Source of the DNA: an uncultured delta proteobacterium
GTDB lineage: Bacteria; Desulfobacterota; Binatia; Binatales; Binataceae
DNA length: 64,000 nt
Direction: 5' to 3'
NCBI GenBank assembly: GCA_963765675.1
Contig: CAVXXK010000001.1
Span: forward strand, 224,001-288,000
Part shown: one piece after another, positions 1,935 through 59,170 of the stretch
Numbering within the stretch: position 1 is the stretch's first letter
How the letters are laid out: every line of letters begins with the position of its first letter
Notes under the pieces: model-generated
Seen by the model: the letters and a program-made list of their open reading frames with translations, nothing else
Database searches by the model: none
Told to the model about the DNA's origin: nothing
Position numbers and translations under genes: made by a program

Positions 1935-3770
<1,836 letters not shown>

Positions 3771-5134: not shown

Positions 5135-5221
5135 GTGATCACTCTGCAAAAGCGCGGCCAGATCGATGCGTCCGCGCGAATGAAAGCGATTAGCGGCCGT
5201 GATTATCGAAGCGAGCATCAA

Positions 5222-7342: not shown

Positions 7343-7360
7343 GAGGAGACGTTTTCAGAA

Positions 7361-9838: not shown

Positions 9839-10209
9839 TGCTCTCCGCAAGCTCATCGATGATGCCGACTAAGGATTGGGTGTTCGTGGCAGGCGTGGGT
9901 CAGGTCGCGCTCGGGCAGGGGCGATGCTTCCTCGTCGGCACGCGCAAGATCGCGATCTTCCGATTGCGCAACGGCGAGGTCTACGCACTCGACGCGGTTT
10001 GTCCGCATCGCGACGGCCCGCTCGCCGACGGAGTGGTCGGCCACAACACGGTGGTCTGCCCCTTCCACGGCTACAAGTTCTCGCTGACGGACGGACGCGG
10101 CCTCGACAACGATTTCGCCGTCGGCAGTTACCCGGTCGAGCTACGCGGCGGGATGCTTTACATCCGGCTCCCGCGCGATCGGCTTGAGACGGCGGCGCGC
10201 ATCGCATGA
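9838..10209 (+). CDS. nirD: Nitrite reductase small Rieske subunit
   Basis: Rieske motifs CPHRDGPL and CPFHG; overlaps nirB stop. Confidence 0.85.
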   Translation: MLSASSSMMPTKDWVFVAGVGQVALGQGRCFLVGTRKIAIFRLRNGEVYALDAVCPHRDGPLADGVVGHNTVVCPFHGYKFSLTDGRGLDNDFAVGSYPVELRGGMLYIRLPRDRLETAARIA

Positions 10210-10214: not shown

Positions 10215-11282
10215 TCATAGCGACGCCGCAATCTCCGCGCTCTCTTTAACGAGTTGCTCGACCAGATCTGCCGCCGGCATTGCGCGAGCGAGCGATGCGC
10301 CCTGGCCTGCCCACAGCGAGAGATAGCTCGCGTCGCCTTTCTTCGCCGCCGCGGTGCGCATCGGACGGGTCAGATTGTTCTGCGCGGGATACGGCAGGAT
10401 CGAGCGCTCGTGCTCTTTCATGCTGACGGCGAATGAATTCGGGATTCCGCGCGCGAGCCGGCCGCTGAACGCCCGCGTGAGGATCGTGGCGTCGTCGCGC
10501 GCCGCACGGATCGCGGCTCTGTAGGCCTCAGACGCTCCGCTCTCCGGGCATAGGAGAAACGCGGTTCCCATCTGAACTGCGCTCGCGCCGAGCGCCGCTG
10601 CGGCGACGATGCCGCGCCCGTCCATGATTCCTCCCGACGCGATCACGGGAAGCGGAACCGCGTCGGCGATCTGCGCAACCAGCGCCATCGTCCCGACGAG
10701 ACTGTCTTCGCACGAAGCCAGGAAAGTTCCGCGATGCGCACCGGCCTCGCTTCCTTGGGCGACGATCGCGTCGACGCCCGCGGCGTGCAACGCTCGCGCT
10801 TCAGCAACGGTCGTGGCCGTTCCGATGAGCTTGATGCCGCGCGCTTTCATCCGCGCCAGAACATCCGCCTCCGGGACGCCGAAGGTGAAACTGAAGATCG
10901 GAGCCTGCGCCTCCAGAACCGCCTTCACCTGCTGTGCAAATGGCGGGAGCGAGCTGCTTGGGTTCGTAGGGGCGGGCAGGCCGAGCTTTGCGTGAAACGA
11001 AGCCATCACTTTCAGCATCTCCGCCGAATCGTGCGAGCCGGTGCCGTCGGGACCGCCGGCGAACAGGTTAACCGCGAACGGCCGATTGGTCAGTGACCGA
11101 ATCTCGACGATCGTGCGCGCGATCTCCTCGGGCGTCATGTAACCCGCTCCCATCGAACCCAATCCTCCCGCATTCGACACCGCCGCTACGAGCGCCGGAG
11201 TGCTCGTTCCACCGGCCATCGGCGCCAGAATGATCGCGTGCTTGACGCCTAACCAGGAAGCAAATCGATCAAATCGCCGCAT
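10215..11282 (-). CDS. Nitronate monooxygenase (2-nitropropane dioxygenase family)
   Basis: APMAGG, VSNAGGLG, QGSEAGAHRG, ASGGIMDGRG, TRAFSGRLARG, LWAGQ; ATG 11282 has an AAGGAGG RBS. Confidence 0.9.
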   Translation of the reverse strand: MRRFDRFASWLGVKHAIILAPMAGGTSTPALVAAVSNAGGLGSMGAGYMTPEEIARTIVEIRSLTNRPFAVNLFAGGPDGTGSHDSAEMLKVMASFHAKLGLPAPTNPSSSLPPFAQQVKAVLEAQAPIFSFTFGVPEADVLARMKARGIKLIGTATTVAEARALHAAGVDAIVAQGSEAGAHRGTFLASCEDSLVGTMALVAQIADAVPLPVIASGGIMDGRGIVAAAALGASAVQMGTAFLLCPESGASEAYRAAIRAARDDATILTRAFSGRLARGIPNSFAVSMKEHERSILPYPAQNNLTRPMRTAAAKKGDASYLSLWAGQGASLARAMPAADLVEQLVKESAEIAASL

Positions 11283-11409
11283 TGCCACTAGGCCTCCTTG
11301 CCCATGGTTGAACACCTACCGAAACGACCGCTGGGATGCGAGTATAATCGCCGGGCAGGAAATCAACCGTGACAGGCAGCTGATCGACTCACTAATCACT
11401 CATTTTCAG

Positions 11410-26133: not shown

Positions 26134-26874
26134 ATGCGCGCAGCGCCCGTATCTGAAATCCGAAGACTCCGTGGCCTCAAGAACATTTCTTGGCTCACAT
26201 CGCGCCAAGTGAACAGACTCGCCGCAGCGCTGACTCTGAGACGAGTCAAAGTGCACGGGATCATTTTCGATGAACACCAATCCCCGGAATCCGCGTTTGT
26301 GCTGCTGGAGGGAGTCGCGCGAATCACGTGCCGGAACCGTAAAGGCGATCGCACACTCGTGATCATGGTTGCGCCGGGAATGATTCCGGGCTTTCCGCCG
26401 CCGGTTTCCGGAATCAGGTACAACTTCCGTTGCGAGGCGGTTACCGACTGCCAGGTCGGTGCCGTCGAGTTGGACACTTTCATCGAAATCGCGCTAGGGA
26501 TTGCTTCGGCGGATTTCAAGCGAATGGCTGCAAGCTACTCCGGGCGATGGGATCTGGTGCAATTGCGCTGCGCGAACTTCATGAGCTGCACGCTCGAGGA
26601 GCGGGTGGCCCTGATTCTGCTGGAGTTGAGTGAGAATTTTGGCGTTCAAGATCGGCAAGGAGTGCGACTAACCGTGCCTGCGCGGCATCGGGACTTTGCG
26701 GAACTGGTAGGAGCCTCCAGACCGCGAGTAACCGAATATCTCGCCGCGTTTGAGCGCGACCACATGATCGTTCGCGACGGGCGTCAGTTGATTGTCAGAC
26801 GCGATCGGCTGCAGAAGTTTCTCGCGCAAAAACATGCCTCTGCAAGCCGTAACGGTTCAGATAATTCGCTCTGA
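26134..26874 (+). CDS. Crp/Fnr-family regulator 1
   Basis: cNMP-binding-like N-domain; LEERVALILLEL..FG; HTH DFAELVGASRPRVTE. Confidence 0.85.
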   Translation: MRAAPVSEIRRLRGLKNISWLTSRQVNRLAAALTLRRVKVHGIIFDEHQSPESAFVLLEGVARITCRNRKGDRTLVIMVAPGMIPGFPPPVSGIRYNFRCEAVTDCQVGAVELDTFIEIALGIASADFKRMAASYSGRWDLVQLRCANFMSCTLEERVALILLELSENFGVQDRQGVRLTVPARHRDFAELVGASRPRVTEYLAAFERDHMIVRDGRQLIVRRDRLQKFLAQKHASASRNGSDNSL

Positions 26875-26976
26875 CGATAGCCGCCATCCGTAATCTTGGC
26901 TCTCTGGAGACCATAATTGCCTGCGAAAAGTCGTTGCGCTGCAACCATAATGTTCTCTGAATAACATTTTGGTTGA

Positions 26977-27714
26977 TTGAAGCGTGCGCGTGGCATAGGC
27001 TCATCACATGCTCCTAGAGGTGTGATTTTGAATGAACCCCGCAATTCTTCAGGTAGTGATTTCGACAGACTGAGCCGGCTTAAGACCCTGTCCTGGCTTT
27101 CCACTTCCGAGCTCGGGATGCTCGCCGGAGCCCTCGCGCTTACCGACTACAAACGATCGCAGATAATGTTTCGCGAAGCCGCTTTCGCCTCCGATGCGCA
27201 CATCTTGTTAAGAGGCATCGCGCGCATCACGTGCCAGAACGCCCACGGTGAGCGGGTGACGATCGCTCTGCTTCCACCGGGCCCGATTCCCGAGTTTCCT
27301 TCCGAACCTAAGAGCCTGCTCGATTTTCAGTGCGAGGCGTACAACGATTGCAGAGTCGGCAGCGTGGGCTGGAATGATTTCGACGGCATCACCATTCATA
27401 GCTCGGAATCGGCCTTCAAGAGATTTCATCAAAACGATTTGCGTCAGTGGTACCGGCTACTTCTGCGAAGCTCGAGTTTTCTCAACCTCAGCCTTCGTGA
27501 ACGCATCACCATTACACTGCTCGAACTAGCTTCCGATTTTGGCATCAAGGAATCCCGCGGTTCGCTCCTGAGAGCCTCGTTCAGTCATCAGGACATCGCG
27601 GATCTGGTCGGAGCTTCCCGGCCAAGGGTGACCGAGCATCTGGCTCAATTGGAGCGCGAGCATCTGGTTATTCGCCAGGGCCGGCAACTGATTGTGTGCG
27701 TCGACAAAGAATAG
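26977..27714 (+). CDS. Crp/Fnr-family regulator 2 (paralog; start uncertain)
   Basis: LRERITITLLEL..FG; HTH QDIADLVGASRPRVTE. Confidence 0.85.
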   Translation: MKRARGIGSSHAPRGVILNEPRNSSGSDFDRLSRLKTLSWLSTSELGMLAGALALTDYKRSQIMFREAAFASDAHILLRGIARITCQNAHGERVTIALLPPGPIPEFPSEPKSLLDFQCEAYNDCRVGSVGWNDFDGITIHSSESAFKRFHQNDLRQWYRLLLRSSSFLNLSLRERITITLLELASDFGIKESRGSLLRASFSHQDIADLVGASRPRVTEHLAQLEREHLVIRQGRQLIVCVDKE

Positions 27715-27767: not shown

Positions 27768-28565
27768 TCACTTCGATTTGGGTTCAAATTTCGCGAGGTA
27801 TGGCTCGACGTCGGGCGCAAACGCCGGATGCCTGCGCAGCAGGGCGAGGTGCGCGAATGCTCGCGGAAAAACTTCATCGATCTTCGCATGCAATATCGGC
27901 TCAAGGCTTTTGCGCTCTAGCTGCTCGAAGCTTCTCCGCTCGTTGAAGAACAAGCTCATCTCGGCAACGAAACAGATATCCGCCAGAGTCAGGCGATCAC
28001 CGACCAGGTACTCGCGATCAGGCGCAAGAGCCTGATCGATTCCGCCGGCGTAGATTGCGAATCCGTCGCGCGCTCTTGCGTGAATCTCCGGCGAGACCGT
28101 GCCGTCGAGCAAGGAAAGAAGATAGATTTGCGCGTCGCGCGCGAACACAAGACTCACGTCCAGAAAGCTATCGACGCGCGCCGCCTCATATGGACTACTT
28201 CCGTACAGAGGAAATCTATTCTCTCCCAGCCGGGCGACCGCACGCATGATGCTGTTGGATTCAAAAATGCCGATCTTACCGTCGGGACTGAACGCGGCTG
28301 GAACGGTGCCGAATGGATGCGCAGCGATGAAGGCGCTCGTCTTGTGCAACGTTCCCGTGAAACCGATTTTTCCGGCGGCTCCCCTGCTCGAATGGGCTCG
28401 CTCGTCGTTCGAAAGAGGCCGCGCATCGAAGTCCCAGAGCCAGGATTGGAGATCTTTTGGCGCGCTCCCCCTAACGTCGATTTCGATTCCGCAAAGACGC
28501 GCCGCGATCGTCGCCTTCCAAATGCGCGGGTTCGGCAGATAGGAAAAAATCCTGAGCTGAATCAT
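27768..28565 (-). CDS. Glutathione S-transferase family protein
   Basis: SYLPNPR N-terminus, HPFGTVPA, IFESNSI, YLVGDRLTLADI. Confidence 0.85.
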   Translation of the reverse strand: MIQLRIFSYLPNPRIWKATIAARLCGIEIDVRGSAPKDLQSWLWDFDARPLSNDERAHSSRGAAGKIGFTGTLHKTSAFIAAHPFGTVPAAFSPDGKIGIFESNSIMRAVARLGENRFPLYGSSPYEAARVDSFLDVSLVFARDAQIYLLSLLDGTVSPEIHARARDGFAIYAGGIDQALAPDREYLVGDRLTLADICFVAEMSLFFNERRSFEQLERKSLEPILHAKIDEVFPRAFAHLALLRRHPAFAPDVEPYLAKFEPKSK

Positions 28566-28618
28566 GGTCGCTGCTTAATCCGAGTGGGTTCGCGTCTGCG
28601 TCCGCGTCCTGTGATCAC

Positions 28619-29326
28619 CTACCAGGTTTCGCCGAACGGCCTGACCTCGACGTTGAAGGACCATGCGCTGCGATCCTGATGCGCGACATGCCAAACTTCC
28701 TCGGCGATGGCGGAAGGCTTGATGAAGAACGCGTCGGGAGCCTGTGGGAATCGCTTGCGCGTCCATTCCAGATCGATCACCGCGTCGATCAGCACGTAGG
28801 CAACATGCACGCCTTTGGGTCCGAGCTCGCGCGCGATCGATTCGGCGAGAATTCGTTGCGCTGCTTTGGTCGGCGCAAACCCCGCGAAATTAGCTTTGCC
28901 GCGAAGCGCAGAAGTGTTGCCGCTGGCGACGATCGCACCGTCTCCAGCGGCGATCATCGCCGGAGCAAGCCGGCGCGCAAGAAGCAGCAACGCCATCGTG
29001 TTTACCTGAAAGTTCTGGTTCAGAACTTTCGGATCGATTTCCATGAAGTTGCCAAACGCGCCGCCGACCGCGTTATGCACCAGTATCTTGGGCGCGCCGA
29101 GTTCGGCGTGTATCGCACCGAGTGCGGCGTCGATTTGTGATTCGTCGGTCACATCACATGGAAACGCGCGAGTGCCCACAATCTCGCTCTCGAGCCGAGA
29201 CAGGCGTTCCCGATTGCGCGCAAGCATCGCAACCGCAAATCCTCCGTGCGCGAATCGTCGCGCAATAGCCGCGCCGGTTCCCGGACCTACGCCGGTTACA
29301 ACTGCGACAGGCTTAGTATTACTCAT
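28619..29326 (-). CDS. SDR oxidoreductase
   Basis: TGVGPGTG, F-x3-K active-site variant (FAPTK), C-terminal QDRSAWSFNVEVRPFGETW; GGAGG RBS. Confidence 0.88.
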   Translation of the reverse strand: MSNTKPVAVVTGVGPGTGAAIARRFAHGGFAVAMLARNRERLSRLESEIVGTRAFPCDVTDESQIDAALGAIHAELGAPKILVHNAVGGAFGNFMEIDPKVLNQNFQVNTMALLLLARRLAPAMIAAGDGAIVASGNTSALRGKANFAGFAPTKAAQRILAESIARELGPKGVHVAYVLIDAVIDLEWTRKRFPQAPDAFFIKPSAIAEEVWHVAHQDRSAWSFNVEVRPFGETW

Positions 29327-30536
29327 TGCGACCTCCGCTGCTGTTGCTCTCTGCATGTCTCACGACACGAGTTTCCTCGAGACGCGCGATATCTTCGATG
29401 CTGTAGCCCAGGTCGCGAAGAATCGCCGCGCTATCCGCTCCGAGGATCGGCGCAAGTTGGCGAATGCTCGCGGGAGTGCGGTCGAAGAGCGCCGCGGGGC
29501 GCGGCATTCTTACTTTGCCGAACGTCGGGCTCTCATGCTCCTGGAGGATTTTGTTTTCGCGCACCTGCGGTTCCTTCAGAAGCTCGAAACGGCTGAGCAC
29601 CGGCGCCGAAGGAACATCATTGGCGAGAAGCCGCGGCAAAATCTCACTCGCCGTCCACTTCTCGAGTTCTGCGGTCGCGATCTCGCGGCGCTCGACCGCA
29701 TTTTTGGATCGCGAGCGCGCTGTCTTGAAACGAGGATCGTCGATCAGATCCTCGCGATTGAATGCCCGGCACATCCCGGCCCATTCGTCGTCTGACAGAG
29801 CTCCCGCGGTGATGTAGCGATCCTGCGTTGCAAATACGAGGTCAGGACCGACCTCGCCGTCGGAAGGATCTTGTTCTTCTCCGACGAAGGTCAGGCTCGG
29901 CATCGCTTCCGGCCACAGATAGGCGATCATCGCGTCCAGCATCGCGATTCTGACGTGCTGGCCTTGTCCGGATCGCTCTCTGGCGAACAGCGCCGCGGTG
30001 ATCGCTTGCGACGCGGTCAATGCCGTCGTGTAGTCTGCTATGATCGTGCGAACCATCCTGGGACGCCCCGTGTCGCGATCGCGCTGGATTTCCGCAAGAC
30101 CCGAGAGCGCCTGTATCACCGGATCGTAAGCGCGCTGGCCCGCATAGGGTCCGCTCTCTCCAAAGCCGGTTATAGACACATAGATAATGTCCGGACGACT
30201 CGCGCGCACGGCGTCTTCACCCAGACCCATGCGCTCAGCGACGCCCGGGCGGAAGTTGTGCACGACGACTGCCGCCGACGCAATGAGCTTGCCTATTATC
30301 TCAAGTCCCTGCGCTGATTTCAGATCGATCGCCAGCGAGCGTTTGTTGCGATTGCAAGAGAGAAACGGCGCTGACATTCCGTTGCGGCCATGCGCGAGAT
30401 GACGCATCAGCTCTCCGTTCGGAGGCTCGATCTTGATCACCTCCGCGCCCTGGTCGGCCAGCATCATGGTTGCTACCGGCCCCGCAACCATGCTCGTGAA
30501 GTCCAGGACTCGAATACCTTCCAGCGGTCCGGTCAT
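29319..30536 (-). CDS. Family III CoA-transferase (CaiB/BaiF)
   Basis: PLEGIRVLD, GAEVIKIEPP, NRNKRS, NFRPG, YDPVIQA. Confidence 0.92.
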   Translation of the reverse strand: MTGPLEGIRVLDFTSMVAGPVATMMLADQGAEVIKIEPPNGELMRHLAHGRNGMSAPFLSCNRNKRSLAIDLKSAQGLEIIGKLIASAAVVVHNFRPGVAERMGLGEDAVRASRPDIIYVSITGFGESGPYAGQRAYDPVIQALSGLAEIQRDRDTGRPRMVRTIIADYTTALTASQAITAALFARERSGQGQHVRIAMLDAMIAYLWPEAMPSLTFVGEEQDPSDGEVGPDLVFATQDRYITAGALSDDEWAGMCRAFNREDLIDDPRFKTARSRSKNAVERREIATAELEKWTASEILPRLLANDVPSAPVLSRFELLKEPQVRENKILQEHESPTFGKVRMPRPAALFDRTPASIRQLAPILGADSAAILRDLGYSIEDIARLEETRVVRHAESNSSGGRNE

Positions 30537-30540
30537 TTGT

Positions 30541-31197
30541 TTAAGCTCCTTGCGAGCCGACTATCGTGCAAAGTTTCGCTCGAGCGCTGCGTGGTAGGCA
30601 TGACGCTGACGCGACTCGCTGTCTATAGCTCGAGAATGTTTCCGAGAGAGGAATCTCAGCGGACACGGCCCAATCAAGGCAGGTCATCAACAGAATATCG
30701 GCGGCGCTCAACCGGTTGCCAAATAGGTATTCGCCGCTCGCGCCAACCCGCGACGCCATCGCTTCGAGATTGTGGATGAAGTAGTTTTTCGCCGCCTCGA
30801 CCGCTACCGGCGCTTCACCGTAAGTTACCTTCAGGCCCTCATGCCGCCGCATAATATACAATGAACCTGCGTCCAGCTCGGAAATCACGAAATAACACCA
30901 CTCATTCAATCTCGCGCGATCCCTGGCGTCGCCGGGAACATACATCCTCGCCGGATTGGCAAAGGTCTCGCTCAGGTACTGAATAATCGCCGCGCTTTCG
31001 GTCAAGACAAATTGCCCATGGCGAAGCACCGGAATCTTGTGCCGTGGATTGAGCAGTTTGAATTCGCTGGTTTGAGTCTCGCCGGTTCGCGAACCTATCG
31101 GTTCAAATTCATATTGCAGCTCCAGCTCCAGCAACATCCAATGCGCCCGCATCGTGCGGCTGGTGCCCGCGCCCCAAAGAGTCAGATCGTGTGCCAC
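30541..31197 (-). CDS. Glutathione S-transferase (probable C-terminal frameshift; corrected stop at 30561)
   Basis: TSR, LNPRHKIPVL, LTESAAI, LSAADI. Confidence 0.85.
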   Translation of the reverse strand: MAHDLTLWGAGTSRTMRAHWMLLELELQYEFEPIGSRTGETQTSEFKLLNPRHKIPVLRHGQFVLTESAAIIQYLSETFANPARMYVPGDARDRARLNEWCYFVISELDAGSLYIMRRHEGLKVTYGEAPVAVEAAKNYFIHNLEAMASRVGASGEYLFGNRLSAADILLMTCLDWAVSAEIPLSETFSSYRQRVASASCLPRSARAKLCTIVGSQGA

Positions 31198-31219
31198 GTC
31201 AGCATCTCGTTCCTTTCAA

Positions 31220-31951
31220 CTAGAATGTTTCCGTAAACGGCCTGACGTCCATTTCGTGAGTCCACGCGCTTCGATCCTGATGTGCAAGGTACCAGAATGC
31301 ATCGGCGATCGCCGACGGCTTCAGCAAGTCCTGATCTTTCGCTTGTGGACGAAGTTTCCTCAAGAGCGGCATATCGATACCGCCATCCACATTGACGTAC
31401 GCGACGTGGATTCCTTGCGGATGAAGATCGCGGGCCATCACCTGGGCAAGACCTCTGACAGCGAATTTCGCCGGAGCGAATCCCGCCGAGTTGGGCCACG
31501 GCCGCACGCCAGCCGTCGCGCCCGTGATTAGAATCGATCCGCTACCGCGCGAAAGCATCTCCGGCACTGCCTGGCGCGCCCACAGAAATGCGCCAAAGGT
31601 ATGCAGTCGCCAGGTGTCTTCGAAAACCTGCGGCGTCGTCTCGAGTAGGCGGCCCATCGGACGCCGTCCTCCATTGTAAACGAGAATCTCGATTGGACCG
31701 AGTTCGCGGGTGATTCGCTCATGCGCGGCGGCGATTTGCGTCTCGATAGTGGCATCGCTCTGGATCGGCAACGCGATACCGCCGGCCGAGTTGATCTCAC
31801 TGGCCGTCTTCTCAATCACGCTCGAGCTTCTGGCCACGAGCGCGACTTTGTAACCAGCGGCAAAGCGGCGGGCAAGGCCAGCGCCAAGGCCCTCTCCGAC
31901 ACCGACCACGACGCACACTTTGTCCGAAGGACTTACGGCGGAATCACTCAT
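31220..31951 (-). CDS. SDR oxidoreductase
   Basis: VGVGEGLG, TGATA, FAPAKFAVR, QDRSAWTHEMDVRP. Confidence 0.88.
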   Translation of the reverse strand: MSDSAVSPSDKVCVVVGVGEGLGAGLARRFAAGYKVALVARSSSVIEKTASEINSAGGIALPIQSDATIETQIAAAHERITRELGPIEILVYNGGRRPMGRLLETTPQVFEDTWRLHTFGAFLWARQAVPEMLSRGSGSILITGATAGVRPWPNSAGFAPAKFAVRGLAQVMARDLHPQGIHVAYVNVDGGIDMPLLRKLRPQAKDQDLLKPSAIADAFWYLAHQDRSAWTHEMDVRPFTETF

Positions 31952-31993
31952 GAGTTCTCCAATGCGGTTACGTCAGAGATATTGCGGCTATTG

Positions 31994-32034
31994 ATGACGC
32001 TCGTCATGTTTGGTATATTCATGACGATCGTAAT
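31994..32034. promoter_or_regulatory. Twin palindromic operator (probable TetR sites)
   Basis: ATGACG-CT-CGTCAT (31994-32007) and ATGACG-AT-CGTAAT (32021-32034) in the divergent SDR/TetR spacer. Confidence 0.7.
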
Positions 32035-32081
32035 CAAATGTGTCAAGAGAGTTCAAAGGTCGGAGGGCCACGAAAGAGCTG

Positions 32082-32690
32082 ATGCGGGTATCGAAAGAAA
32101 CCGCCGCGCACAACCGCGAACAGATCCTGGCAGCCGCCGCTCGCATGTTTCGCGAACAGGGCATCACGGCGACCGGGGTCGACTCGATAACCAAAGCGGC
32201 CGGACTCACTCACGGCGGCCTCTACAGCCAGTTCGGATCAAAACAAGCGATCGCCGCCGAGGCGATCCACTATGCGGCCGCGCGATCGGAACGGCGATGG
32301 CAGCGCGCCGCCGAGCGTAGCACCGGCGCGCGAATCTTGCCCTCGATCATAGAGACCTACCTCGCGCCGGCGCATCGCGATGCTCCGGGCCATGGCTGCG
32401 TGATCGCGTCTCTTGCTACGGACGTTGCCCGGCAACCGAAGGCGGTGCGCAAGGCGTTTACGAGAGAGCTAAGAAACACGCTTGAATTTCTGGCTCATCA
32501 AATGCCGAGTAAGAGTTCCTCGCGGAGATTCGAGAGCGCTGCGGCCGCATTTTCGACGATGGTCGGCGCACTGATTCTTGCGCGCGCAGTGAGTGACAAT
32601 GAGCTGTCAGGGCAAATATTGAATGCTGCGGCAGCTCGCACTGCGGATCTCGCCCAAGCGCGAAAACGATCGCGCCGAAACATCAGGTGA
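32082..32690 (+). CDS. TetR-family regulator
   Basis: ILAAAARMFREQG...GVDSITKAAGLTHGGLYSQFGSK. Confidence 0.92.
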   Translation: MRVSKETAAHNREQILAAAARMFREQGITATGVDSITKAAGLTHGGLYSQFGSKQAIAAEAIHYAAARSERRWQRAAERSTGARILPSIIETYLAPAHRDAPGHGCVIASLATDVARQPKAVRKAFTRELRNTLEFLAHQMPSKSSSRRFESAAAAFSTMVGALILARAVSDNELSGQILNAAAARTADLAQARKRSRRNIR

Positions 32691-33457
32691 ACCCTGCGCA
32701 CGGAGGATCGTCTTTGGAACCAAGGAATGCCACTGTCGCCGTGATTGGCGCCGGAGACTATATCGGCGGCGCTATTGCCAAACGATTTGCGGCCGAGGGT
32801 TTTACGGTCTTCGCTGGGCGCCGAACCGCGGATAAGCTGGCGCCGCTGGTTGCGGAGATCGAGGCCGCGCACGGACGCGTTGTCGCGCGAGCCCTCGATG
32901 CGCGCAAGGAAGATGAGATAACTGCTTTTCTAAAAGACGCCGACGCTCACGCTCCGCTAGAGGTCTGCATCTTCAATGTCGGGGCCAACGTCAATTTTCC
33001 AATCCTCGAGACGACCGATCGCGTCTTTCGCAAGGTTTGGGAGATGGCCTGCTATTCGGGCTTTTTGGCTGGTCGCGAAGCTGCGCGGTTGATGCTTCCG
33101 CGCGGACGCGGATGCATCTTCTTTACCGGCGCCACCGCGAGCATTCGCGGAGGAATCGGCTATTCGGCATTCGCCAGTGCGAAATTTGGCCTGCGCGCGG
33201 TGGCACAGAGTATCGCCCGCGAACTCGGACCCAGGAATATCCACGTCGCCCATCTCATCATCGATGCGGGAGTAGATACCGCATGGGTACGGGACCGAAT
33301 CAAAGAGCGAGAAGGCGACGCCGCTGTCAACAATCTTGATCCAGGTCGTCTGATGCGGCCGGCTGCGGTCGCGGAAGCATACTGGCAGCTATACCAACAA
33401 CCGCGCGATGCCTGGACTTTCGAGCAGGAAATTCGTCCGTTCGGAGAGAAGTGGTGA
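32687..33457 (+). CDS. SDR oxidoreductase
   Basis: IGAGDYIG, FTGATAS, FASAKFGLR, QPRDAWTFE..IRPFGEKW. Confidence 0.88.
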   Translation: MNPAHGGSSLEPRNATVAVIGAGDYIGGAIAKRFAAEGFTVFAGRRTADKLAPLVAEIEAAHGRVVARALDARKEDEITAFLKDADAHAPLEVCIFNVGANVNFPILETTDRVFRKVWEMACYSGFLAGREAARLMLPRGRGCIFFTGATASIRGGIGYSAFASAKFGLRAVAQSIARELGPRNIHVAHLIIDAGVDTAWVRDRIKEREGDAAVNNLDPGRLMRPAAVAEAYWQLYQQPRDAWTFEQEIRPFGEKW

Positions 33458-33461
33458 ACTC

Positions 33462-34067
33462 ATGATCAAGGTAGAATTCCATTTCGATTTTGGCAGCCCC
33501 AATGCATACCTCAGTCATCTGGTTATTCCTGAGATCGAGAAGCGGACCGGCGTAAAGTTCGAGTACGTGCCGGTTCTGCTGGGCGGCGTCTTCAAGATGA
33601 CCAACAATCGTTCACCAGCCGAGAGCCTGGCGGGAATCAAGAACAAGCCCGATTATGAGCGTCTCGAAACCGCGCGCTTCATCCGTCGTCACGGCATAAA
33701 GCGCTTCACCTCCAATCCGTTTTTTCCTGTAAATACATTAGTGTTGATGCGTGGAGCGATCGCGGCTCAATCACTCGGTATATTCGAGCGATACGTTGAC
33801 GAAGTGTATAGACACATGTGGGCCGAACCCAAGAAAATGGACGATCCCGCGATACTGCGTGCCGCGTTCAGCGAGTCGAGCTTGCCGACGGACAAAATTC
33901 TCGAATTGGCGCAAGCTCAGAACGTTAAGGACAGATTGCTCGAGAACACTCGGCGCTCCGTCGAGCGCGGCACCTTTGGGTCACCGACGTTCTTTGTCGG
34001 CGACGAGATCTTTTTCGGAAAGGACCGCCTGCGCGACGTCGAAGAGTTGATAACCGCCTCAAAGTAA
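33462..34067 (+). CDS. HCCA isomerase / kappa-class GST (DsbA-like fold)
   Basis: FHFDFGSPNAY, GTFGSPTFFV, FFGKDRL. Confidence 0.88.
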   Translation: MIKVEFHFDFGSPNAYLSHLVIPEIEKRTGVKFEYVPVLLGGVFKMTNNRSPAESLAGIKNKPDYERLETARFIRRHGIKRFTSNPFFPVNTLVLMRGAIAAQSLGIFERYVDEVYRHMWAEPKKMDDPAILRAAFSESSLPTDKILELAQAQNVKDRLLENTRRSVERGTFGSPTFFVGDEIFFGKDRLRDVEELITASK

Positions 34068-41782: not shown

Positions 41783-43057
41783 ATGGCCGCAACCAAGCTT
41801 CGCTTCGGCGCGTTTATCGCGCCCTTCCATCCCCTTAACGAAAACCCCACGCTCGCGATCGAGCGCGATTTGGAGCTCGTGCAGTGGATGGACCGGCTGT
41901 CCTACGACGAAGCCTGGATCGGCGAGCATCACTCCGCCGGCTACGAGCTGATCGCGAGCCCCGAAATTTTCATCGCAACCGCCGCCGAGCGCACCCGCAA
42001 TATCCGCCTCGGCACCGGCGTGTCGTCGCTGCCGTATCATCATCCGCTGATGCTCGCGGACCGGATTAACCAGCTCGATCATATTACCCGCGGACGCGCG
42101 ATGTTCGGAGTCGGACCGGGCGCGTTGCCATCTGACGCCGCGATGATGGGAATCGAGGTCGCCAAGCAGCGCGACATGATGGACCAGGCGCTCGAGGTGC
42201 TGGTGCCATTGCTGCGCGGCGAAACCGTCACGAAGAAAACCGACTGGTTCACGCTGAAAGACGCGCGCCTCCAGATGACGCCATACTCGCGCCCCTCGGT
42301 CGAGGTCGCCGTCGCAAGCCAGGTCTCACCGACCGGATCGCGCGCTGCAGGCAAACATGGCGTCGGACTTCTCTCGCTCGGCGCAACTTCGGCGGGCGGG
42401 TTCAACGCGCTCTCGTCCAACTGGGCCATCGCCGAAGAAATGGCGCGCGACAACGGGACCGTGATGGATCGCGCGCGATGGCGTCTCGTGGGACCGGTGC
42501 ATGTCGCTGAGACGCGCGAGCAGGCACGCGCCAACGTCCGCTTCGGACTCGAGAAGTGGCTGTTCTATTTCCGCGAGGTCGCCGCGCTTCCGGTCGCGCC
42601 TGACGATGGTTCCGATCCGGTCGATGCGTTGATCGCTTCGGGGCTCGCTGTCGTCGGAACGCCCGACGATTGTATCGCGCAGATCGAGCGGCTCCAGAAG
42701 CAGTCGGGAGGCTTCGGCTGCTTTCTTCAGCTCGCGCACAACTGGGCGAACTGGGAAGCGACCAAACACTCCTACGAATTGATCGCGCGCTACGTGATGC
42801 CGAAGTTCCAGGATTTGAACCTCAATCGCGAGACTTCGCTCAACTGGGCGAAACAAAATCGCGAGAGCTTCATCGGCGCCGCGACCGCCGCCGTCGCTTC
42901 TCGCATCGCCCAGCACATTTCAGAAAAGGGTTCGGAAAATATCCGCCCCGAGATTCTCGAATCGATGGGGATGACGAAAAGCGCGGACGGTCACCCGGAC
43001 GCGCCGTCGGTCTTGTCCGCGATTTCTCCGCTGCCGGGCAAAGCGAACGGAAGATGA
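41783..43057 (+). CDS. LLM-class flavin monooxygenase (limonene 1,2-monooxygenase-like)
   Basis: FGAFIAPFH, WIGEHHSAG, LGTGVSSLPYHHP, GVGPGALPSDA. Confidence 0.85.
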   Translation: MAATKLRFGAFIAPFHPLNENPTLAIERDLELVQWMDRLSYDEAWIGEHHSAGYELIASPEIFIATAAERTRNIRLGTGVSSLPYHHPLMLADRINQLDHITRGRAMFGVGPGALPSDAAMMGIEVAKQRDMMDQALEVLVPLLRGETVTKKTDWFTLKDARLQMTPYSRPSVEVAVASQVSPTGSRAAGKHGVGLLSLGATSAGGFNALSSNWAIAEEMARDNGTVMDRARWRLVGPVHVAETREQARANVRFGLEKWLFYFREVAALPVAPDDGSDPVDALIASGLAVVGTPDDCIAQIERLQKQSGGFGCFLQLAHNWANWEATKHSYELIARYVMPKFQDLNLNRETSLNWAKQNRESFIGAATAAVASRIAQHISEKGSENIRPEILESMGMTKSADGHPDAPSVLSAISPLPGKANGR

Positions 43058-43174
43058 ATCGCGGAACGATCGCGCCGCTTGAATAGTTGCCACGCTCTGC
43101 CTTAAGAGACAATTGGCCGTCATCAGCCTGCGCGGACTGGGCGCTGAACTACGGCATCAACAGGAGGAATTTTC

Positions 43175-44473
43175 ATGAGCTGGGATTTTGAAACGGAACC
43201 GGAGTTCCAAAAGGAACTCGACTGGATCGATAAATTCGTGCGCGAAGAAGTCGAGCCGCTCGACTACGTGCTGGGCCATCCGTATGACGTGAAAGACCCA
43301 AAGCGCAACGCTCTCGTGCGCCCGCTCCAGGCCGAGGTCCGCAAGCGCAAGCTCTGGGCCTGCCATCTGGGCCCCGACCTCGGCGGACCGGGTTACGGCC
43401 AAATCAAGCTCGCGCTGATGAACGAGATTCTCGGCCGCTCACGCTTCGCTCCGATCGTGTTCGGATGCCAGGCGCCCGACTCCGGCAACGCCGAGATTCT
43501 CGCGCATTACGGCACCCCCGATCAGAAGAAGCGTTTTCTCCAGCCGCTGCTCGACAATGAAATTGTTTCTGCATTCTCGATGACCGAGCCGCAGGGCGGC
43601 GCCGATCCCAAGGTCTTCACCACCAAGGCCGAGCTGCGCGGCGACAACTGGGTGATCAACGGTGAGAAGTGGTTCTCGTCGAACGCGCATCTGGCTTCGT
43701 TTCTGATCGTGATGGCGGTGACGGACCCCGACGCCAAAGAATACAACCGGATGTCGATGTTCATCGTGCCGAAAGAGACGGCCGGAGTGAAAATTCTGCG
43801 AAACATGGGCGTCGGCATGCACGAGGCCGAGGGCAGCCACGCCTATATCCGCTATGAAGACGTGACCGTTCCCAAGGATCACATGCTCGGACCCCGCGGC
43901 GGCGCGTTCGTCGTCGCGCAGACTCGTCTGGGCGGCGGCAGGATTCATCATGCGATGCGCACGATCGGGCAGGTGCGCAAGGCGTTCGACATGATGTGCG
44001 AGCGGGTGCTTTCGCGCACCACGCAAGGCTCGCGGCTGGCCGACAAGCAGATGGTGCAGGAAAAAATTGCCGACTCGTGGATGGAGATCGAGCAGTTCCG
44101 GCTATTGGTGCTGCGCACCGCGTGGAAGATCGATCGCTACAAAGATTATCTGAAGGTGCGCAAGGATATCGCCGCCGTGAAAGCCCTGATGCCGAAAGTT
44201 TTTCACGATGTCGCCGCCCGCGCGCTGCATCTGCACGGCTCGCTCGGCGCGACCGGCGAGATGCCGTTCGTCGAGCAGGTCATCCAGAGCTTCCACATGG
44301 GTCTCGCCGATGGACCGACCGAGGTCCACAAGGTGACGGTCGCGCGCCAGGTGCTGCGCGAATACAAAGCCACCACCGGACTTTTCCCGAGCCAGCATAT
44401 TCCGAAGCTGCGCGAAGCCGCGATCAAAAAGTACGCGGACCGTATCGAACACGAGGTTCGCGCCCAGTCATGA
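43175..44473 (+). CDS. Acyl-CoA dehydrogenase
   Basis: APDSGNAE, FSMTEP, INGEKWFSS, RLGGGRIHH, DGPTEVH. Confidence 0.92.
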   Translation: MSWDFETEPEFQKELDWIDKFVREEVEPLDYVLGHPYDVKDPKRNALVRPLQAEVRKRKLWACHLGPDLGGPGYGQIKLALMNEILGRSRFAPIVFGCQAPDSGNAEILAHYGTPDQKKRFLQPLLDNEIVSAFSMTEPQGGADPKVFTTKAELRGDNWVINGEKWFSSNAHLASFLIVMAVTDPDAKEYNRMSMFIVPKETAGVKILRNMGVGMHEAEGSHAYIRYEDVTVPKDHMLGPRGGAFVVAQTRLGGGRIHHAMRTIGQVRKAFDMMCERVLSRTTQGSRLADKQMVQEKIADSWMEIEQFRLLVLRTAWKIDRYKDYLKVRKDIAAVKALMPKVFHDVAARALHLHGSLGATGEMPFVEQVIQSFHMGLADGPTEVHKVTVARQVLREYKATTGLFPSQHIPKLREAAIKKYADRIEHEVRAQS

Positions 44474-44503
44474 TAGCGGGCGCGCGATAAATCAGCACGG
44501 GAG

Positions 44504-45410
44504 ATGCCAGTGGCTTACGAACAGATTCTCTACGACGTCAAGGACAATATCCTGACGATCACACTGAACCGGCCCGAGAAGTTGAACGCGTTTACCGGCG
44601 TGATGATGACCGAAATGATCGACGCGTTCGATCGCGCCGACAAGGATGACGAGATTCGCGCGATTATCGTGACCGGCGCCGGACGCGCGTTTTGCGCCGG
44701 CGCCGATCTTTCATCGGGTCCAGATACCTTCAACTCTTCGCGCTCTGATCGCCCCGAGCGCAAGAGCGCAATCCGCGCCGACGGCTCGATCGATTGGACC
44801 AATGACGCGACTCGCGACGGTGGCGGACGTCTGACACTACGAATCTTCGAATGCCTGAAACCAGTCATCGCGGCCGTCAACGGACCGGCGGTCGGTGTCG
44901 GCGTTACGATGCAACTGGCGATGGACGTGCGGATCGCGTCGGAAAACGCGCGCTTTGGGTTCGTTTTCTCGCGCCGCGGAATAGTTCCCGAGGCCTGCTC
45001 GAGCTGGTTTCTGCCGCGGATCGTCGGAATTTCGCAGGCGCTGGAATGGGCATTTTCTGGCCGGGTCTTTTCCGCAAAAGAGGCGCTCGAGGGGCGGCTT
45101 GGTCAGCAAAATCTACCCGCCGAGCGAACTTGTTCCGGCCGCGCGCGCCCTCGCCCGCGAGATCGCCGACAACACCTCGCAGGTCTCGGTCGCACTGATT
45201 CGTCACATGATGTGGAAGATGCTGGGCGCGGACCATCCGATGGAGGCGCACAAGGTCGATAGCAAGGGAATCTTCGTGCGCGGCGCGTCCGCCGATGTCA
45301 GAGAAGGTGTGGCTTCGTTTCTCGAGAAGCGACCGGCCAAATTTCCGGAGAAAGTCTCGAAGGACATGCCGTCGTATTTTCCCTGGTCGCCGCCCCGAAA
45401 ATACAGCTAA
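44504..45410 (+). pseudogene. Enoyl-CoA hydratase/crotonase split by a 1-nt frameshift (may be a sequencing error)
   Basis: AFCAGADL, AVNGPAVG, GIVPEA in one frame; removing one G of GGGG (45091-45094) gives ...ALEGGLVSKIYP...EGVASFLEKR. Confidence 0.8.
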
Positions 45411-58681: not shown

Positions 58682-58751
58682 GGATTGTTTTGCCTCGGCG
58701 GAAATGCCGCGTAGTTGAATTGCGCGGCGCCGGTGCGCCGATAGATCAAAT

Positions 58752-58943: not shown

Positions 58944-59170
58944 GGCATCTCCTGGCTAACTCATCTGGCGCTGAACACGGCTCCGAGACTAGCGCAGCGG
59001 CATAAATCGAACCAGCCAAGACGGCATTGGGCAATCGCCATCAATCCAACCACCGAGACACCAAGGCACAAAGAAACAATCCATTTCCGCGCGCCGCGCG
59101 CTTGACCCATCGCTATGCTCCGATCTCTGATAGGTTCGCAACGTCACCATTCCTCCAAGGAGAAAGCGCG

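Follow-up and report, generated by a model that had tools for sequence, protein, structure and literature searches.

A cluster of tyrosine-less SDRs, glutathione-fold proteins and a StyG-clade CoA-transferase in Binataceae suggests a modular, glutathione-linked accessory function

The closest described systems are isoGHIJ and styGHIJ. For the former, an excerpt of PMC9804861 presents the proposal that IsoG forms a GS-acid CoA thioester and that IsoJ then removes glutathione from the thioester. The latter consists of a CoA-transferase, an SDR and two GSTs on the annotated Gordonia plasmid NZ_CP022581.1, just as a preliminary description of the DNA studied here had stated. A cluster of the same general composition occupies positions 27768 to 34067 of the window (the whole 64,000-nucleotide stretch analysed) in an uncultured Binataceae soil bacterium. 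Its eight open reading frames form a minus-strand series and a divergent plus-strand series, and both the reading frames and the Pfam matches agree with the gene layout first proposed. The features, with the minus-strand genes in transcription order, are as follows.

31220-31951, minus strand: SDRB, a tyrosine-less SDR (motif FAPAK) that opens the minus-strand operon, with GST2 directly after it; Pfam adh_short, E 1.3e-36
30541-31197, minus strand: GST2, a glutathione transferase of canonical fold, 4 nt upstream of the CoA-transferase; Pfam GST_N, E 2.3e-16
29319-30536, minus strand: family III (Frc/CaiB) CoA-transferase of the clade that contains StyG; Pfam CoA_transf_3, E 7.9e-112
28619-29356, minus strand: SDRA, a tyrosine-less SDR (FAPTK); Pfam adh_short, E 2.2e-31
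27768-28565, minus strand: GSTL, a divergent GST-fold protein of 265 aa, EF1B-gamma/phi-like, with weak Pfam matches
31991-32037, between SDRB and the TetR gene: two operator-like palindromes (inverted repeats) and a promoter-like site
32040-32690, plus strand: TetR-family regulator; Pfam TetR_N, E 3e-13
32687-33457, plus strand: SDRC, a tyrosine-less SDR (FASAK); Pfam adh_short, E 2.6e-29
33462-34067 (reading frame open from 33408), plus strand: DsbA-fold protein, like kappa-GST and 2-hydroxychromene-2-carboxylate (HCCA) isomerase; Pfam DSBA, E 2.7e-25

Neighboring genes overlap or are separated by 4 to 53 nt. The genes are real: other Binataceae genomes carry orthologs with 63 to 97% identity in an unchanged order. 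The true start of SDRA is probably its second Met, near 29326. A Pfam scan found neither a transporter nor an oxygenase nor a downstream catabolic gene inside the cluster, and the earlier remark that it holds no monooxygenase stands.

The likeness to styGHIJ is clearest for the CoA-transferase, which shares 44% identity with StyG across 389 aa (E 6e-117) and is the best StyG match in the genome (335 versus 259 bits). In a tree against 26 paralogs from its own genome, which covers the StyG part of the phylogeny suggested at the outset, it groups with StyG at a support of 100/99, and the Asp at its catalytic position (D168) is conserved in 73 sequences. The likeness does not extend to the remaining genes. 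StyH keeps Y-x3-K, whereas the cluster SDRs have F-x3-K and resemble StyH only in a generic way (E 0.002 or worse). A genome search at E ≤ 1e-5 gave no StyI homolog. GST2 shares 27% identity with StyJ, less than three StyJ-like GSTs encoded elsewhere in the genome (42 to 46%). These results do not support the SDRs and GSTs of the cluster as equivalents of StyH, StyI and StyJ.

A search for related loci recovered the full or near-full cluster repeatedly in Binataceae, and conservation is modular, each SDR paralog keeping its own glutathione-fold neighbor. Among 80 loci, GST2 directly follows SDRB in 30 of 32 SDRB matches, SDRA directly precedes GSTL in 27 of 30 GSTL matches (37 SDRA matches), and SDRC directly precedes the HCCA-like gene in 29 of 31 HCCA-like matches (36 SDRC matches). 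In 67 of 76 testable loci (38/44 Binatia-type and 29/32 other, mostly alphaproteobacterial), the gene immediately upstream of the CoA-transferase is GST2. The cluster is thus built of three reusable units, GST2 with the StyG-clade CoA-transferase, a tyrosine-less SDR with GSTL, and a tyrosine-less SDR with the kappa-GST/HCCA-isomerase-like protein; a third tyrosine-less SDR stands before GST2. The units also occur separately, so they need not form one linear pathway: a Binataceae genome has the three SDRs, GSTL and the HCCA-like gene and lacks GST2 and the CoA-transferase, and a tyrosine-less SDR lies near 5 of 26 full alphaproteobacterial loci for GST2 and CoA-transferase. Orthologs of the CoA-transferase are present in 13 of 41 related genomes (9/10 in the genus, 0/16 outside the family), and GSTL is present in 10 of the 41, adjoining a tyrosine-less SDR in all nine regions fetched. 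Flanking genes vary between genomes, and neighboring genes gave no substrate clue in the loci annotated.

Beyond Binatia, an SDRC-like gene was found in 74 of 301 evenly sampled Alphaproteobacteria, and among the best 30 of these 74 loci the adjoining gene is DsbA/HCCA-isomerase-like at 24 and a GST at 1. Of 14 plasmid or chromid matches, 11 records were examined, and each of them has an HCCA/DsbA-like or GST gene at a distance of up to 5 kb; the carriers include Trichlorobacter, Cupriavidus, Ralstonia, Variovorax, Eleftheria and Tistrella. The pairing of an SDR with a glutathione-type enzyme recurs widely in bacteria, without earlier description.

The three SDRs have Phe in place of the catalytic Tyr and share a C-terminal tail, as had been noted from the sequence: the tails read QDRSAW..VRPFGETW, QDRSAW..VRPFTETF and QPRDAW..IRPFGEKW, and the Phe aligns with the catalytic Tyr of diacetyl reductase 3WYE in an HMMER alignment. 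They belong to a clade of 236 representative clusters (E ≤ 1e-30) that includes PDB 3H7A. SDRC is the paralog nearest to this structure, its family profile matching at E 2.7e-108, and SDRB, which has orthologs of >80% identity in many Binataceae, matches at E 3.4e-44. Across 135 aligned clade sequences, the Tyr position is occupied by F in 108, L in 17, other residues in 9 and Y in 1; 128 sequences retain the Lys, 117 the Thr at −12 and 112 the Arg at −8. At the cofactor site G17, G19, G23, R41, D66 and N93, and in the pocket and tail H182, D189, Q225, W230, E233 and R237 are at least 90% conserved. In SDRs, an Arg after strand 2 indicates NADP(H), and its conservation here suggests that the tyrosine-less SDRs would use NADPH and not NAD+. 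A further paralog in the same genome adjoins MaoC-like and enoyl-CoA hydratase genes.

The glutathione-fold partners differ in kind. GSTL scores 23.9 bits for GST_N_2 (cut-off 25) and 22.4 bits for GST_C (cut-off 20.7), and phmmer against PDB finds the phi-class GSTF9 (1.9e-8) and EF1B-gamma (7.5e-8). Its AF2 model has a pLDDT of 65.8, with low confidence in the N-terminal domain (residues 30 to 101), and the thioredoxin-like domain holds an insertion of roughly 35 aa; the top Foldseek matches of the model are EF1B-gamma GST-like domains and phi GSTs (E about 1e-8). The PDB matches and the predicted structure together support a GST fold. In the DsbA/HCCA-like protein, Ser stands where DsbA has its Cys motif (FDFGSPNAY); all of 17 orthologs share S12 and P13, and the PDB matches are HCCA isomerase 2IMD (2.5e-13) and GSTK1 (2.4e-6). 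The best matches of GST2 are the NCBIfam model maiA (66 bits, far below the cut-off of 171) and PDB 4KDU (E 1.5e-17). Its conserved residues in 69 aligned sequences are E67-S68, P56 and six Arg, with no conserved N-terminal Ser or Cys in that alignment; the six Arg would fit a polyanionic CoA-ester substrate.

Our leading reading, which we hold tentatively and at rather less than even confidence, is a module for glutathione-assisted isomerization or de-conjugation and NADPH-dependent ene-reduction of activated alkenes, in part in the form of CoA thioesters. Its most likely targets are activated C=C bonds, i.e., α,β-unsaturated carboxylates or enones and their glutathione adducts; this substrate class and every chemical step are what we infer, next to the observed gene content, conservation, pairing, regulator site, clade membership and motif conservation. 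The glutathione-fold proteins would use glutathione as a transient or removable nucleophile, in isomerization or addition-elimination like that of HCCA and maleylpyruvate isomerases. The CoA-transferase would then convert the carboxylate or GS-adduct into a CoA thioester, on which GST2 may act in the manner proposed for IsoG and IsoJ. Finally, the NADP(H)-type SDRs, with Lys and Thr kept and Phe in place of the proton-donating Tyr, would give hydride to the activated alkene rather than interconvert alcohol and ketone. Literature searches found no known activity for any member of the tyrosine-less clade, so ene-reduction is a proposal. According to an excerpt of PMC4988501, Mentha SDRs can be switched from keto- to ene-reduction and back by swapping the catalytic Tyr and Glu, although that precedent has Glu at the catalytic position where the cluster SDRs have Phe. 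We counted for this reading the pairing counts, the SDR residue conservation, the relationship to 2ET6, the GST2 Arg residues, the HxlR and TetR neighbors, the Bradyrhizobium context and the Mentha and IsoG/IsoJ precedents. Counted against it were the lack of a substrate clue from neighboring genes, the lack of a known activity in the SDR clade, the separate units, the lack of an N-terminal Ser or Cys in GST2, the patchy spread and the lack of a glutathione reductase at the curated cut-off in the genome (best 256 versus 606 bits).

It is somewhat unlikely that the locus is instead a stress regulon that only detoxifies thiol-reactive electrophiles (quinones, aldehydes, enones), with NADPH reductases and glutathione transferases in pairs and with the CoA-transferase and GST2 as an unrelated unit under the same repressor. 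The patchy, accessory spread and the lack of transporter, oxygenase and catabolic genes would suit such a role. So would the regulators, the SDR-DsbA pair standing alone beside HxlR-type (8) or TetR (2) genes in the best 30 alphaproteobacterial loci, and in Tistrella and Pseudosulfitobacter beside genes annotated only as helix-turn-helix proteins; HxlR relatives often respond to electrophiles. However, in Binataceae the CoA-transferase pair is set between the SDR-GST pairs with a spacing of 4 to 22 nt, and the Bradyrhizobium versions lie within beta-oxidation-type operons, a setting that speaks for carbon flow and not just for detoxification.

An epoxide-conjugate pathway like those of isoGHIJ and styGHIJ is possible but unlikely. 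In such a pathway, a GST would open an epoxide or other hard electrophile from an oxygenase encoded elsewhere, the SDR would oxidize the GS-alcohol to the acid, the CoA-transferase would activate it and the second GST would remove glutathione. The shared composition and the StyG-clade CoA-transferase speak for it, and so do the glutathione synthesis genes that the preliminary description had suggested looking for: gshB is above its curated cut-off, and a plant-type glutamate-cysteine ligase is slightly below (444.9 versus 463 bits). Several monooxygenase genes also lie at a distance in the window:

1935-3770: BVMO-like gene
222-1238, 41783-43057 and 59027-60013: luciferase-like genes
57431-58681: P450

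The gene at 41783-43057, once suggested as the feeder of the cluster, was looked for up to 10 kb from the CoA-transferase in 80 related loci, and none of them has a counterpart there; this result is informative for the more distant loci only, since in the closest relatives the distance just exceeds the fetched flank. The cluster has no aldehyde dehydrogenase, and the loci annotated have neither an aldehyde dehydrogenase nor an oxygenase linked to it. Together with the missing catalytic Tyr and the failure of equivalence beyond the CoA-transferase, this makes the epoxide-conjugate pathway not the best reading; the CoA-transferase relationship and the glutathione synthesis genes are the parts of the original comparison that hold.

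Quite unlikely, too, is a role of the tyrosine-less SDRs in acyl-CoA beta-oxidation, in which they would be 3-hydroxyacyl-CoA dehydrogenases or 3-ketoacyl reductases of atypical catalytic make-up, with non-catalytic or unrelated glutathione-fold neighbors. After 3H7A, the closest structure with a named function is (3R)-hydroxyacyl-CoA dehydrogenase 2ET6 (E 1.6e-39, family profile), the neighbors on Bradyrhizobium plasmids are an acyl-CoA ligase, two acyl-CoA dehydrogenases, a thiolase and an enoyl-CoA hydratase with no other dehydrogenase, and the own-genome paralog adjoins the MaoC-like and enoyl-CoA hydratase genes. Nevertheless, the loss of the general-acid Tyr, present in 1 of 135 sequences, speaks against alcohol/ketone chemistry, the Arg after strand 2 favors NADPH over NAD+, and a DSBA-like or GST neighbor in 25 of 30 loci is too regular for an unrelated role. 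That the SDRs have no catalytic activity and act as NAD(P)H-binding partners or sensors like NmrA, which regulate or scaffold the glutathione-fold enzymes, would suit the clade-wide loss of Tyr and the one-to-one pairing but is highly improbable, as Lys, Thr and Arg, tallied with the pocket and tail residues as at least 90% conserved, are kept as in an active site.

The preferred reading, a glutathione-assisted module, also involves common control. The palindromic operator-like sites TTGATGACGCTCGTCATG and CATGACGATCGTAATCAA at 31991-32037 overlap a promoter-like match at 31991-32019, and these candidate operators mark the cluster as a putatively TetR-repressed accessory module. The TetR gene overlaps the start of SDRC by 4 nt at its stop codon; distant TetR orthologs align solely from residue 13 to 15 on, with Met15, near 32082, as the probable true start. 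With the recurrence in Binataceae and the glutathione synthesis genes, the operator block in the divergent promoter bears out the initial proposal of a co-regulated, glutathione-linked module. The double palindrome block is present in all 15 orthologous intergenic regions inspected, from 35 loci with TetR; a strict 14-mer operator pattern occurs in 11 of the 35 and, where present, is confined to the SDRB/TetR intergenic region of the locus.

The eight genes of the cluster lie tightly packed within 27768-34067, with spacings of 4 to 53 nt or overlapping ends, in an assembly of 4.5 Mb that is 95.6% complete (stated contamination, 4.3%). The preliminary description had read them as SDR-GST-CaiB-SDR-GST on the minus strand and TetR-SDR-kappa GST/HCCA isomerase on the plus strand, which is correct, the order given there being the order of transcription.

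Genes of the cluster, by strand and in order of transcription
31220-31951, minus strand: SDRB, tyrosine-less short-chain dehydrogenase (SDR), first in transcription order
30541-31197, minus strand: GST2, GST-fold protein, second
29319-30536, minus strand: family III CoA-transferase, third
28619-29356, minus strand: SDRA, tyrosine-less SDR, fourth (probable start near 29326)
27768-28565, minus strand: GSTL, divergent protein of predicted GST fold, fifth
32040-32690, plus strand: TetR regulator (TetR_N, E value of 3e-13; probable start near 32082)
32687-33457, plus strand: SDRC, tyrosine-less SDR, after TetR
33462-34067, plus strand: DsbA-fold protein resembling HCCA isomerase and kappa GST (HCCA-like), after SDRC

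The replacement of the catalytic Tyr by Phe in all three SDRs and their common tail, both noted beforehand, were borne out by reading of the sequences and by a HMMER alignment to diacetyl reductase 3WYE. The motifs at the classical Y-x3-K position are FAPTK, FAPAK, and FASAK, with the Phe opposite the catalytic Tyr of 3WYE, and the tail Q-x-R-x-A-W ... R-P-F-x-E-x-W/F is shared by SDRA, SDRB, and SDRC. Relative to the Asn-Ser-Tyr-Lys tetrad of classical SDRs, each of the three has Phe for Tyr and Thr for Ser and keeps the Lys. A search of 1.84 billion representative proteins recovered a clade of 236 clusters (E <= 1e-30), and 132 matches of at least 200 amino acids, from 150 listed, were aligned with the three window SDRs (n = 135). 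The Tyr position is occupied by Phe in 108 of these sequences, by Leu in 17, by Met, Ile, Val, Cys, His, or Trp in 9, and by Tyr in 1. The Lys is retained in 128/135 and a Thr twelve residues upstream in 117/135; eight residues upstream of the Tyr position stands Arg (112/135) or Lys (18/135). The tail Trp, Arg, Pro, and Glu are kept in 116 to 128 of the 135, and the cofactor-site glycine motif, R41, D66, and N93 are at least 90% conserved. The combination of G-[AN]-T-[AS]-x-x-R, a hydrophobic residue at the Tyr position, the Lys, and the tail W..E..R-P-x-E is present in all three window SDRs. Because Tyr occurs in only 1 of the 135 aligned proteins while the other residues are kept, the replacement is, judged from this alignment, a property of the whole clade and not decay.

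The structure 3H7A belongs to the same clade (E value of 2.7e-108 with the SDRC family profile and 3.4e-44 with SDRB), reads GFAAFASAKF (F-x3-K), and carries the same tail. It is an unpublished structural-genomics entry named "short chain dehydrogenase" with no function or partner recorded, and its group is presumably the NCBI CDD subgroup SDR_c10 (cd05373), described with Phe for the active-site Tyr. After 3H7A, the SDRC profile finds 2ET6, a (3R)-hydroxyacyl-CoA dehydrogenase (1.6e-39), as its next best structure. Full-text literature searches returned no paper tying 3H7A to a short-chain dehydrogenase and none on a short-chain dehydrogenase with the catalytic tyrosine replaced by phenylalanine, and ESM Atlas look-ups gave generic names only. 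A quick FastTree reconstruction of 16 members, shown without support values, placed the three window paralogs in three subclades, that of SDRC being the one with DsbA-like partners across phyla. Domain fusions in the clade (among proteins P0206, P0269, P0237, P0233, and P0196) comprise DUF362 with a 4Fe-4S ferredoxin and one NADAR, and they provide no link to glutathione.

Two further SDRs of the source genome were recorded. A fifth tyrosine-less SDR (contig C3, 317741-318274; FGPAK) is 54% identical to SDRB and adjoins genes for a MaoC-like dehydratase, a phosphotransferase-family protein, and an enoyl-CoA hydratase; its surroundings contain no GST. On contig C1 at 2235756-2240454, a more distant, Tyr-keeping SDR (YTASK) with 33% identity to SDRB and a similar tail is encoded, with another HCCA-isomerase-like gene and a luciferase-like monooxygenase at a distance of about 3 kb. 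This SDR may represent a relative of the SDR-DsbA pairing in which the Tyr has been kept, and it was chosen as the root of the tree, so that its own position there is set by choice.

The conservation search proposed with the preliminary description found the cluster kept in Binataceae, with all genes present in the fetched regions of two genomes of the genus, GSTL being in two pieces in one of them, and variants elsewhere. One fetched related genome has the cluster without GST2; a second variant consists of GSTL, SDRA, and SDRB with a divergent TetR-SDRC-HCCA arm and neither GST2 nor the CoA-transferase; a third holds an SDR, HCCA, GSTL, and SDRA with a divergent TetR. Among 41 related genomes, a count that takes in the source assembly and the unpublished genome G010, GSTL was found in 10 and a CoA-transferase ortholog (E <= 1e-150, 73 to 96% identity) in 13. 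Orthologs of the latter occur in 9/10 other genomes of the genus, 3/14 from other genera of the family, and 0/16 from other families. In one genome of the same genus (G005; L020:9024-9816), GSTL is divided between two adjacent frames (residues 1-191 and 192-263), which is either a frameshift or an assembly error, and the CoA-transferase ortholog of another (G003:C44:4898-6112) contains one in-frame TGA.

When 185,579 species genomes were scanned for the CoA-transferase, 80 loci were recovered, 47 at >=72% identity (Binatia type) and 33, mostly from Alphaproteobacteria, at 56 to 66%. Genes in these foreign loci were called with a simple ORF picker, and the related genomes are not independent samples. 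GST2 lies directly upstream of the CoA-transferase on the same strand in 38/44 Binatia-type and 29/32 other loci with enough upstream sequence. The 36 full-length Binatia-type loci have nearby at least one tyrosine-less SDR in 34 cases, two in 29, and three in 20, together with HCCA-like (23), GSTL (25), and TetR (30), and the 26 full-length loci of the other type include a tyrosine-less SDR in only 5, HCCA-like in 2, GSTL in 1, and the TetR of the cluster in none. Across the 80 loci, SDRA and GSTL are neighbors at 27 of the 30 GSTL hits, SDRB and GST2 at 30 of the 32 SDRB hits, and SDRC and HCCA at 29 of the 31 HCCA hits. Each SDR paralog thus retains its own glutathione-fold neighbor. The flanks are otherwise heterogeneous, and no recurrent oxygenase or transporter was seen in the annotated flanks of the alphaproteobacterial and variant Binatia loci. 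Three unrelated loci have, next to GST2/CoA-transferase, a gene for a large molybdopterin oxidoreductase of the DMSO-reductase family, approximately 800 to 970 amino acids long (L064:1245-3647, between TetR and GST2; L076:11497-14397; and L077:5526-7919). In L074, L086, and L090 the genes flanking the pair include molybdenum enzymes of the XDH type.

The pairing also extends outside Binatia. SDRC-like genes were located on 14 plasmid or chromid records, and all 11 of those examined have an HCCA/DsbA-like or GST gene no more than 5 kb away. The partner is adjacent, or separated by a regulator only, in Trichlorobacter lovleyi, Tistrella mobilis, Pseudosulfitobacter (a GST), Eleftheria terrae, Cupriavidus metallidurans CH34, C. 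campinensis, Ralstonia, and Variovorax. In two Bradyrhizobium plasmids and Polymorphobacter the distance is one gene or 4 to 4.5 kb, and the surrounding genes encode an acyl-CoA ligase, two acyl-CoA dehydrogenases, a thiolase, an enoyl-CoA hydratase, a nitronate-monooxygenase-family protein, and another GST. The Bradyrhizobium plasmids, L111 (NZ_CP082165.1, 144497-153734) and L023 (NZ_CP066352.1), are of the symbiosis type, and their operon runs through HCCA-isomerase-like, adenylate-forming enzyme, tyrosine-less SDR, two acyl-CoA dehydrogenase, thiolase, nitronate-monooxygenase-family, enoyl-CoA hydratase, and GST-like genes; an IS3 element disrupts the ligase gene of strain S06B. An SDRC-like match (E <= 1e-45) was present in 74 of 301 evenly drawn Alphaproteobacteria genomes (1.5-kb flanks). 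For the best 30 of these 74 loci, Pfam classification of the two flanking ORFs identified a DSBA-like protein at 24, a GST at 1, and neither at 5, and an adjacent regulator of the HxlR type is present at 8 and a TetR at 2. A literature search found no paper joining HCCA isomerase, short-chain dehydrogenase, TetR, and glutathione.

GST2 is a regular GST (Pfam GST_N, E value of 2e-16) whose top NCBIfam model is maiA (maleylacetoacetate isomerase) at 66 bits, far below the cutoff of 171; its best PDB match is 4KDU, and maleylpyruvate isomerase 2JL4 is matched at 8e-11. In the zeta-class isomerases glutathione is the catalytic nucleophile on an activated alkene. GST2 shares the maiA and 2JL4 matches with this class but differs from it in the sub-cutoff score, in its CoA-transferase partner, and in its motifs, as the zeta Ser/Cys motif is not conserved in the GST2 family, where six arginines are. 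GSTL has marginal Pfam matches, one of them below the cutoff, and resembles a phi GST and the GST-like domain of EF1B-gamma both by sequence (E value of 2e-8) and by fold, the N-domain of the model having a pLDDT of <50; EF1B-gamma itself has no known catalytic GST activity. The HCCA-like protein matches Pfam DSBA (2.7e-25), the HCCA isomerase NahD (2IMD, 2.5e-13), and GSTK1 (2.4e-6). Its motif FDFGSPNAY has Ser-Pro where DsbA has cysteines, and this Ser-Pro, which starts with S12, is invariant in 17 orthologs. The likeness to HCCA isomerase and kappa GST, both glutathione-dependent, with an enone substrate, lies in the DsbA fold and the N-terminal Ser motif, and the activity is a sequence-based prediction. 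Unlike nahD, the gene lies outside a naphthalene pathway and is coupled to a tyrosine-less SDR, and the identity of its product to 2IMD and GSTK1 is low.

The host is predicted to make glutathione, a point put forward for checking at the outset. The genome encodes gshB (TIGR01380, 369 bits, above the cutoff of 299) and a full-length match to the plant-type glutamate-cysteine ligase (GCS2/TIGR01436) at 444.9 bits, just below the cutoff of 463; an Escherichia coli-type gshA was not found in the genome. A genome search for glutathione reductase (TIGR01424) returned only sub-threshold flavoprotein disulfide reductases, which is no proof of absence. A second, fragmentary gshB-like sequence with an internal TAG stop, at a contig end (contig C13, 139-1058), is possibly a broken copy or contamination.

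The preliminary description had likened the cluster to isoGHIJ (isoprene) and styGHIJ (styrene). The systems in question are isoGHIJ of Rhodococcus AD45 and Variovorax WS11 and styGHIJ of Gordonia rubripertincta CWB2, and our comparison used the Sty proteins, from the annotated Gordonia plasmid NZ_CP022581.1. The CoA-transferase is 44% identical to StyG over its full length (389 amino acids, E value of 6e-117), above the best of 201 other plasmid-borne StyG relatives (43%), and it is the top StyG match among 37 in the genome (335 versus 259 bits). In an IQ-TREE analysis of 38 rows, midpoint rooted, with StyG as the sole characterized transferase, a clade with 100/99 support united the window protein with StyG, eight alphaproteobacterial orthologs, and a protein from a Bradyrhizobium plasmid; all 26 paralogs from the source genome fell outside it. 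The likeness to the styrene and isoprene systems stood for the StyG-clade CoA-transferase, with SDR and GST genes alongside, and for the glutathione-making host, but not for the remaining components. SDRA and SDRB match StyH at E values of 0.002 to 0.004 and SDRC at >1 by blastp, no closer than any SDR, and StyH keeps Y-x3-K (YRISK), whereas the window SDRs have F-x3-K and fall in another clade. The best match of StyI in the cluster has an E value of 0.5, and whole-genome tblastn with StyI found nothing at E <= 1e-5. GST2 and GSTL are 27% (1e-11) and 28% (6e-5) identical to StyJ, and three loci elsewhere in the genome match it better (42 to 46%). The best AldH match is about 2.15 Mb away on the contig. 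Neither aldH nor gshAB lies inside the cluster, nor does any oxygenase, the preliminary description having already noted the lack of an epoxidizing monooxygenase; no such monooxygenase and no aldehyde dehydrogenase recurs in the annotated flanks of related loci. By these comparisons the resemblance is therefore genuine for the CoA-transferase, whereas for the other proteins it is one of gene composition. The LigDEFG beta-etherase pathway of sphingomonads likewise sets an SDR and several GSTs on one substrate series, but it is not known to include a CoA-transferase, and its LigD-type SDRs retain the Tyr. Studies on IsoG and StyG propose that these enzymes convert a glutathionylated acid into its CoA thioester, letting a GST strip the glutathione (PMC9804861; PMC10057887), and the CoA-transferase/GST pair of the cluster parallels the functional pair proposed for IsoG and IsoJ. 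The available portion of the Binatota genome paper mentions glutathione only for dcmA and formaldehyde dehydrogenase.

Our tentative reading is that the cluster deals with activated alkenes and the adducts they form with glutathione, partly as CoA thioesters; it draws on the Tyr-less SDRs, the types of their partners, the StyG-like CoA-transferase, and the arginines of GST2. In classical SDRs the Tyr transfers the proton that the substrate oxygen gains or loses, a relay that hydride delivery to an activated C=C does not require, and 2,4-dienoyl-CoA reductase, in which the canonical Tyr is replaced, reduces C=C instead of C=O. Because Tyr has given way to Phe or Leu while the Lys, the Thr, the NADP(H)-type cofactor site, and the pocket are kept, the clade is unlikely to interconvert alcohols and ketones as IsoH and StyH do; the SDRs would instead deliver hydride to an activated C=C (ene-reduction). 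In Mentha SDRs, swapping the catalytic residues Tyr and Glu is reported to convert keto-reduction into ene-reduction and the reverse, and isopiperitenone reductase, its canonical Tyr replaced, reduces C=C and not C=O (PMC4988501). The likeness is by analogy, these SDR ene-reductases carrying Glu or Ser at the Tyr position whereas the window clade has Phe or Leu. The partners resemble HCCA isomerase, kappa GST, and zeta-like GST, enzymes in which glutathione is the nucleophile that attacks alpha,beta-unsaturated carbonyls, and would act likewise; the CoA-transferase would turn a glutathionylated acid into a CoA thioester before a GST strips the glutathione, as proposed for StyG/IsoG, and a CoA ester as substrate would fit the six arginines conserved in GST2.

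A broader and more doubtful proposal is that the whole tyrosine-less clade (at least 236 clusters, 3H7A included) comprises glutathione-coupled reductases, working as two-gene units with a GST-fold or kappa-GST/DsbA-fold partner. A thiol adduct made or bound by the partner would stand in for the missing Tyr chemistry, for example, in NADPH ene-reduction or reductive de-glutathionylation of enone, enoate, or enoyl-CoA adducts. The unit would be spread over Binatota, Alpha- and Betaproteobacteria, and Thermodesulfobacteriota, and the Binataceae cluster would be a triple unit fused with an IsoG/IsoJ-like CoA-transferase/GST pair.

Pure electrophile detoxification is a rather unlikely role for the cluster. 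A true iso/sty-like epoxide route, with the StyG-clade CoA-transferase on one side and the absence of StyH and StyI counterparts and of a linked monooxygenase on the other, is distinctly unlikely. It is quite improbable that the SDRs are unusual beta-oxidation dehydrogenases. That they are non-catalytic partners is very improbable.

Only a few bacterial catabolic routes depend on glutathione (those for isoprene, styrene, and lignin beta-ethers, and some dehalogenations), and what happens beyond conjugation still awaits proof even for the isoprene model. The GST and StyG-clade CoA-transferase pair conserved alone in many Alphaproteobacteria offers simpler systems for examining the proposed step of CoA thioester formation followed by glutathione removal. 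The locus further exposes a regular partnership between a large uncharacterized Tyr-less SDR clade and glutathione-fold proteins. If this partnership reflects joint chemistry, it would represent a new way for SDRs to work and would give a function to hundreds of genes annotated as "SDR family oxidoreductase" and "2-hydroxychromene-2-carboxylate isomerase", partly in cultivable Cupriavidus, Bradyrhizobium, Variovorax, and Tistrella. The Binataceae are uncultured and abundant in soil, and the module may therefore have a part in how reactive unsaturated compounds are turned over there.

The SDRB/TetR intergenic region of 88 nt contains two 18-nt inverted repeats (31991-32008 and 32020-32037) that overlap a promoter-like site. 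Of 35 loci, 11 have a strict 14-mer operator pattern in this region, and none of these 11 has it anywhere else within the locus of approximately 20 kb. A looser block, CTATTGATGrCGnnCGTCATGTTTGGyAyATTmATGACGCTCGTAATCA, scored by eye and not statistically, is visible in 15/15 printed orthologous intergenic regions. With conserved inverted repeats at a promoter-like site and the strict pattern confined to that region, the divergent operons are likely under TetR control via these predicted operators.

The suggestion that the pathway is fed by flavin monooxygenases such as that at 41783-43057 found no backing, as none of the scattered window oxygenases is conserved next to the cluster. These are two luciferase-like monooxygenases, a BVMO/FMO-like gene, and a P450, within 222-3770 and 57431-60013, together with an LLM-ACAD-ECH trio at 41783-45262. 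An assimilatory nitrate/nitrite reductase set (molybdopterin enzyme, NirB-like, and Rieske-type small subunit) under a LysR gene occupies 5135-10209, and a gene of the nitronate-monooxygenase family comes next (10215-11315). A tandem of two Crp/Fnr-family regulator genes with about 42% mutual identity (26134-27714) lies immediately downstream of GSTL, on the other strand, and is kept at that position only among the closest relatives.
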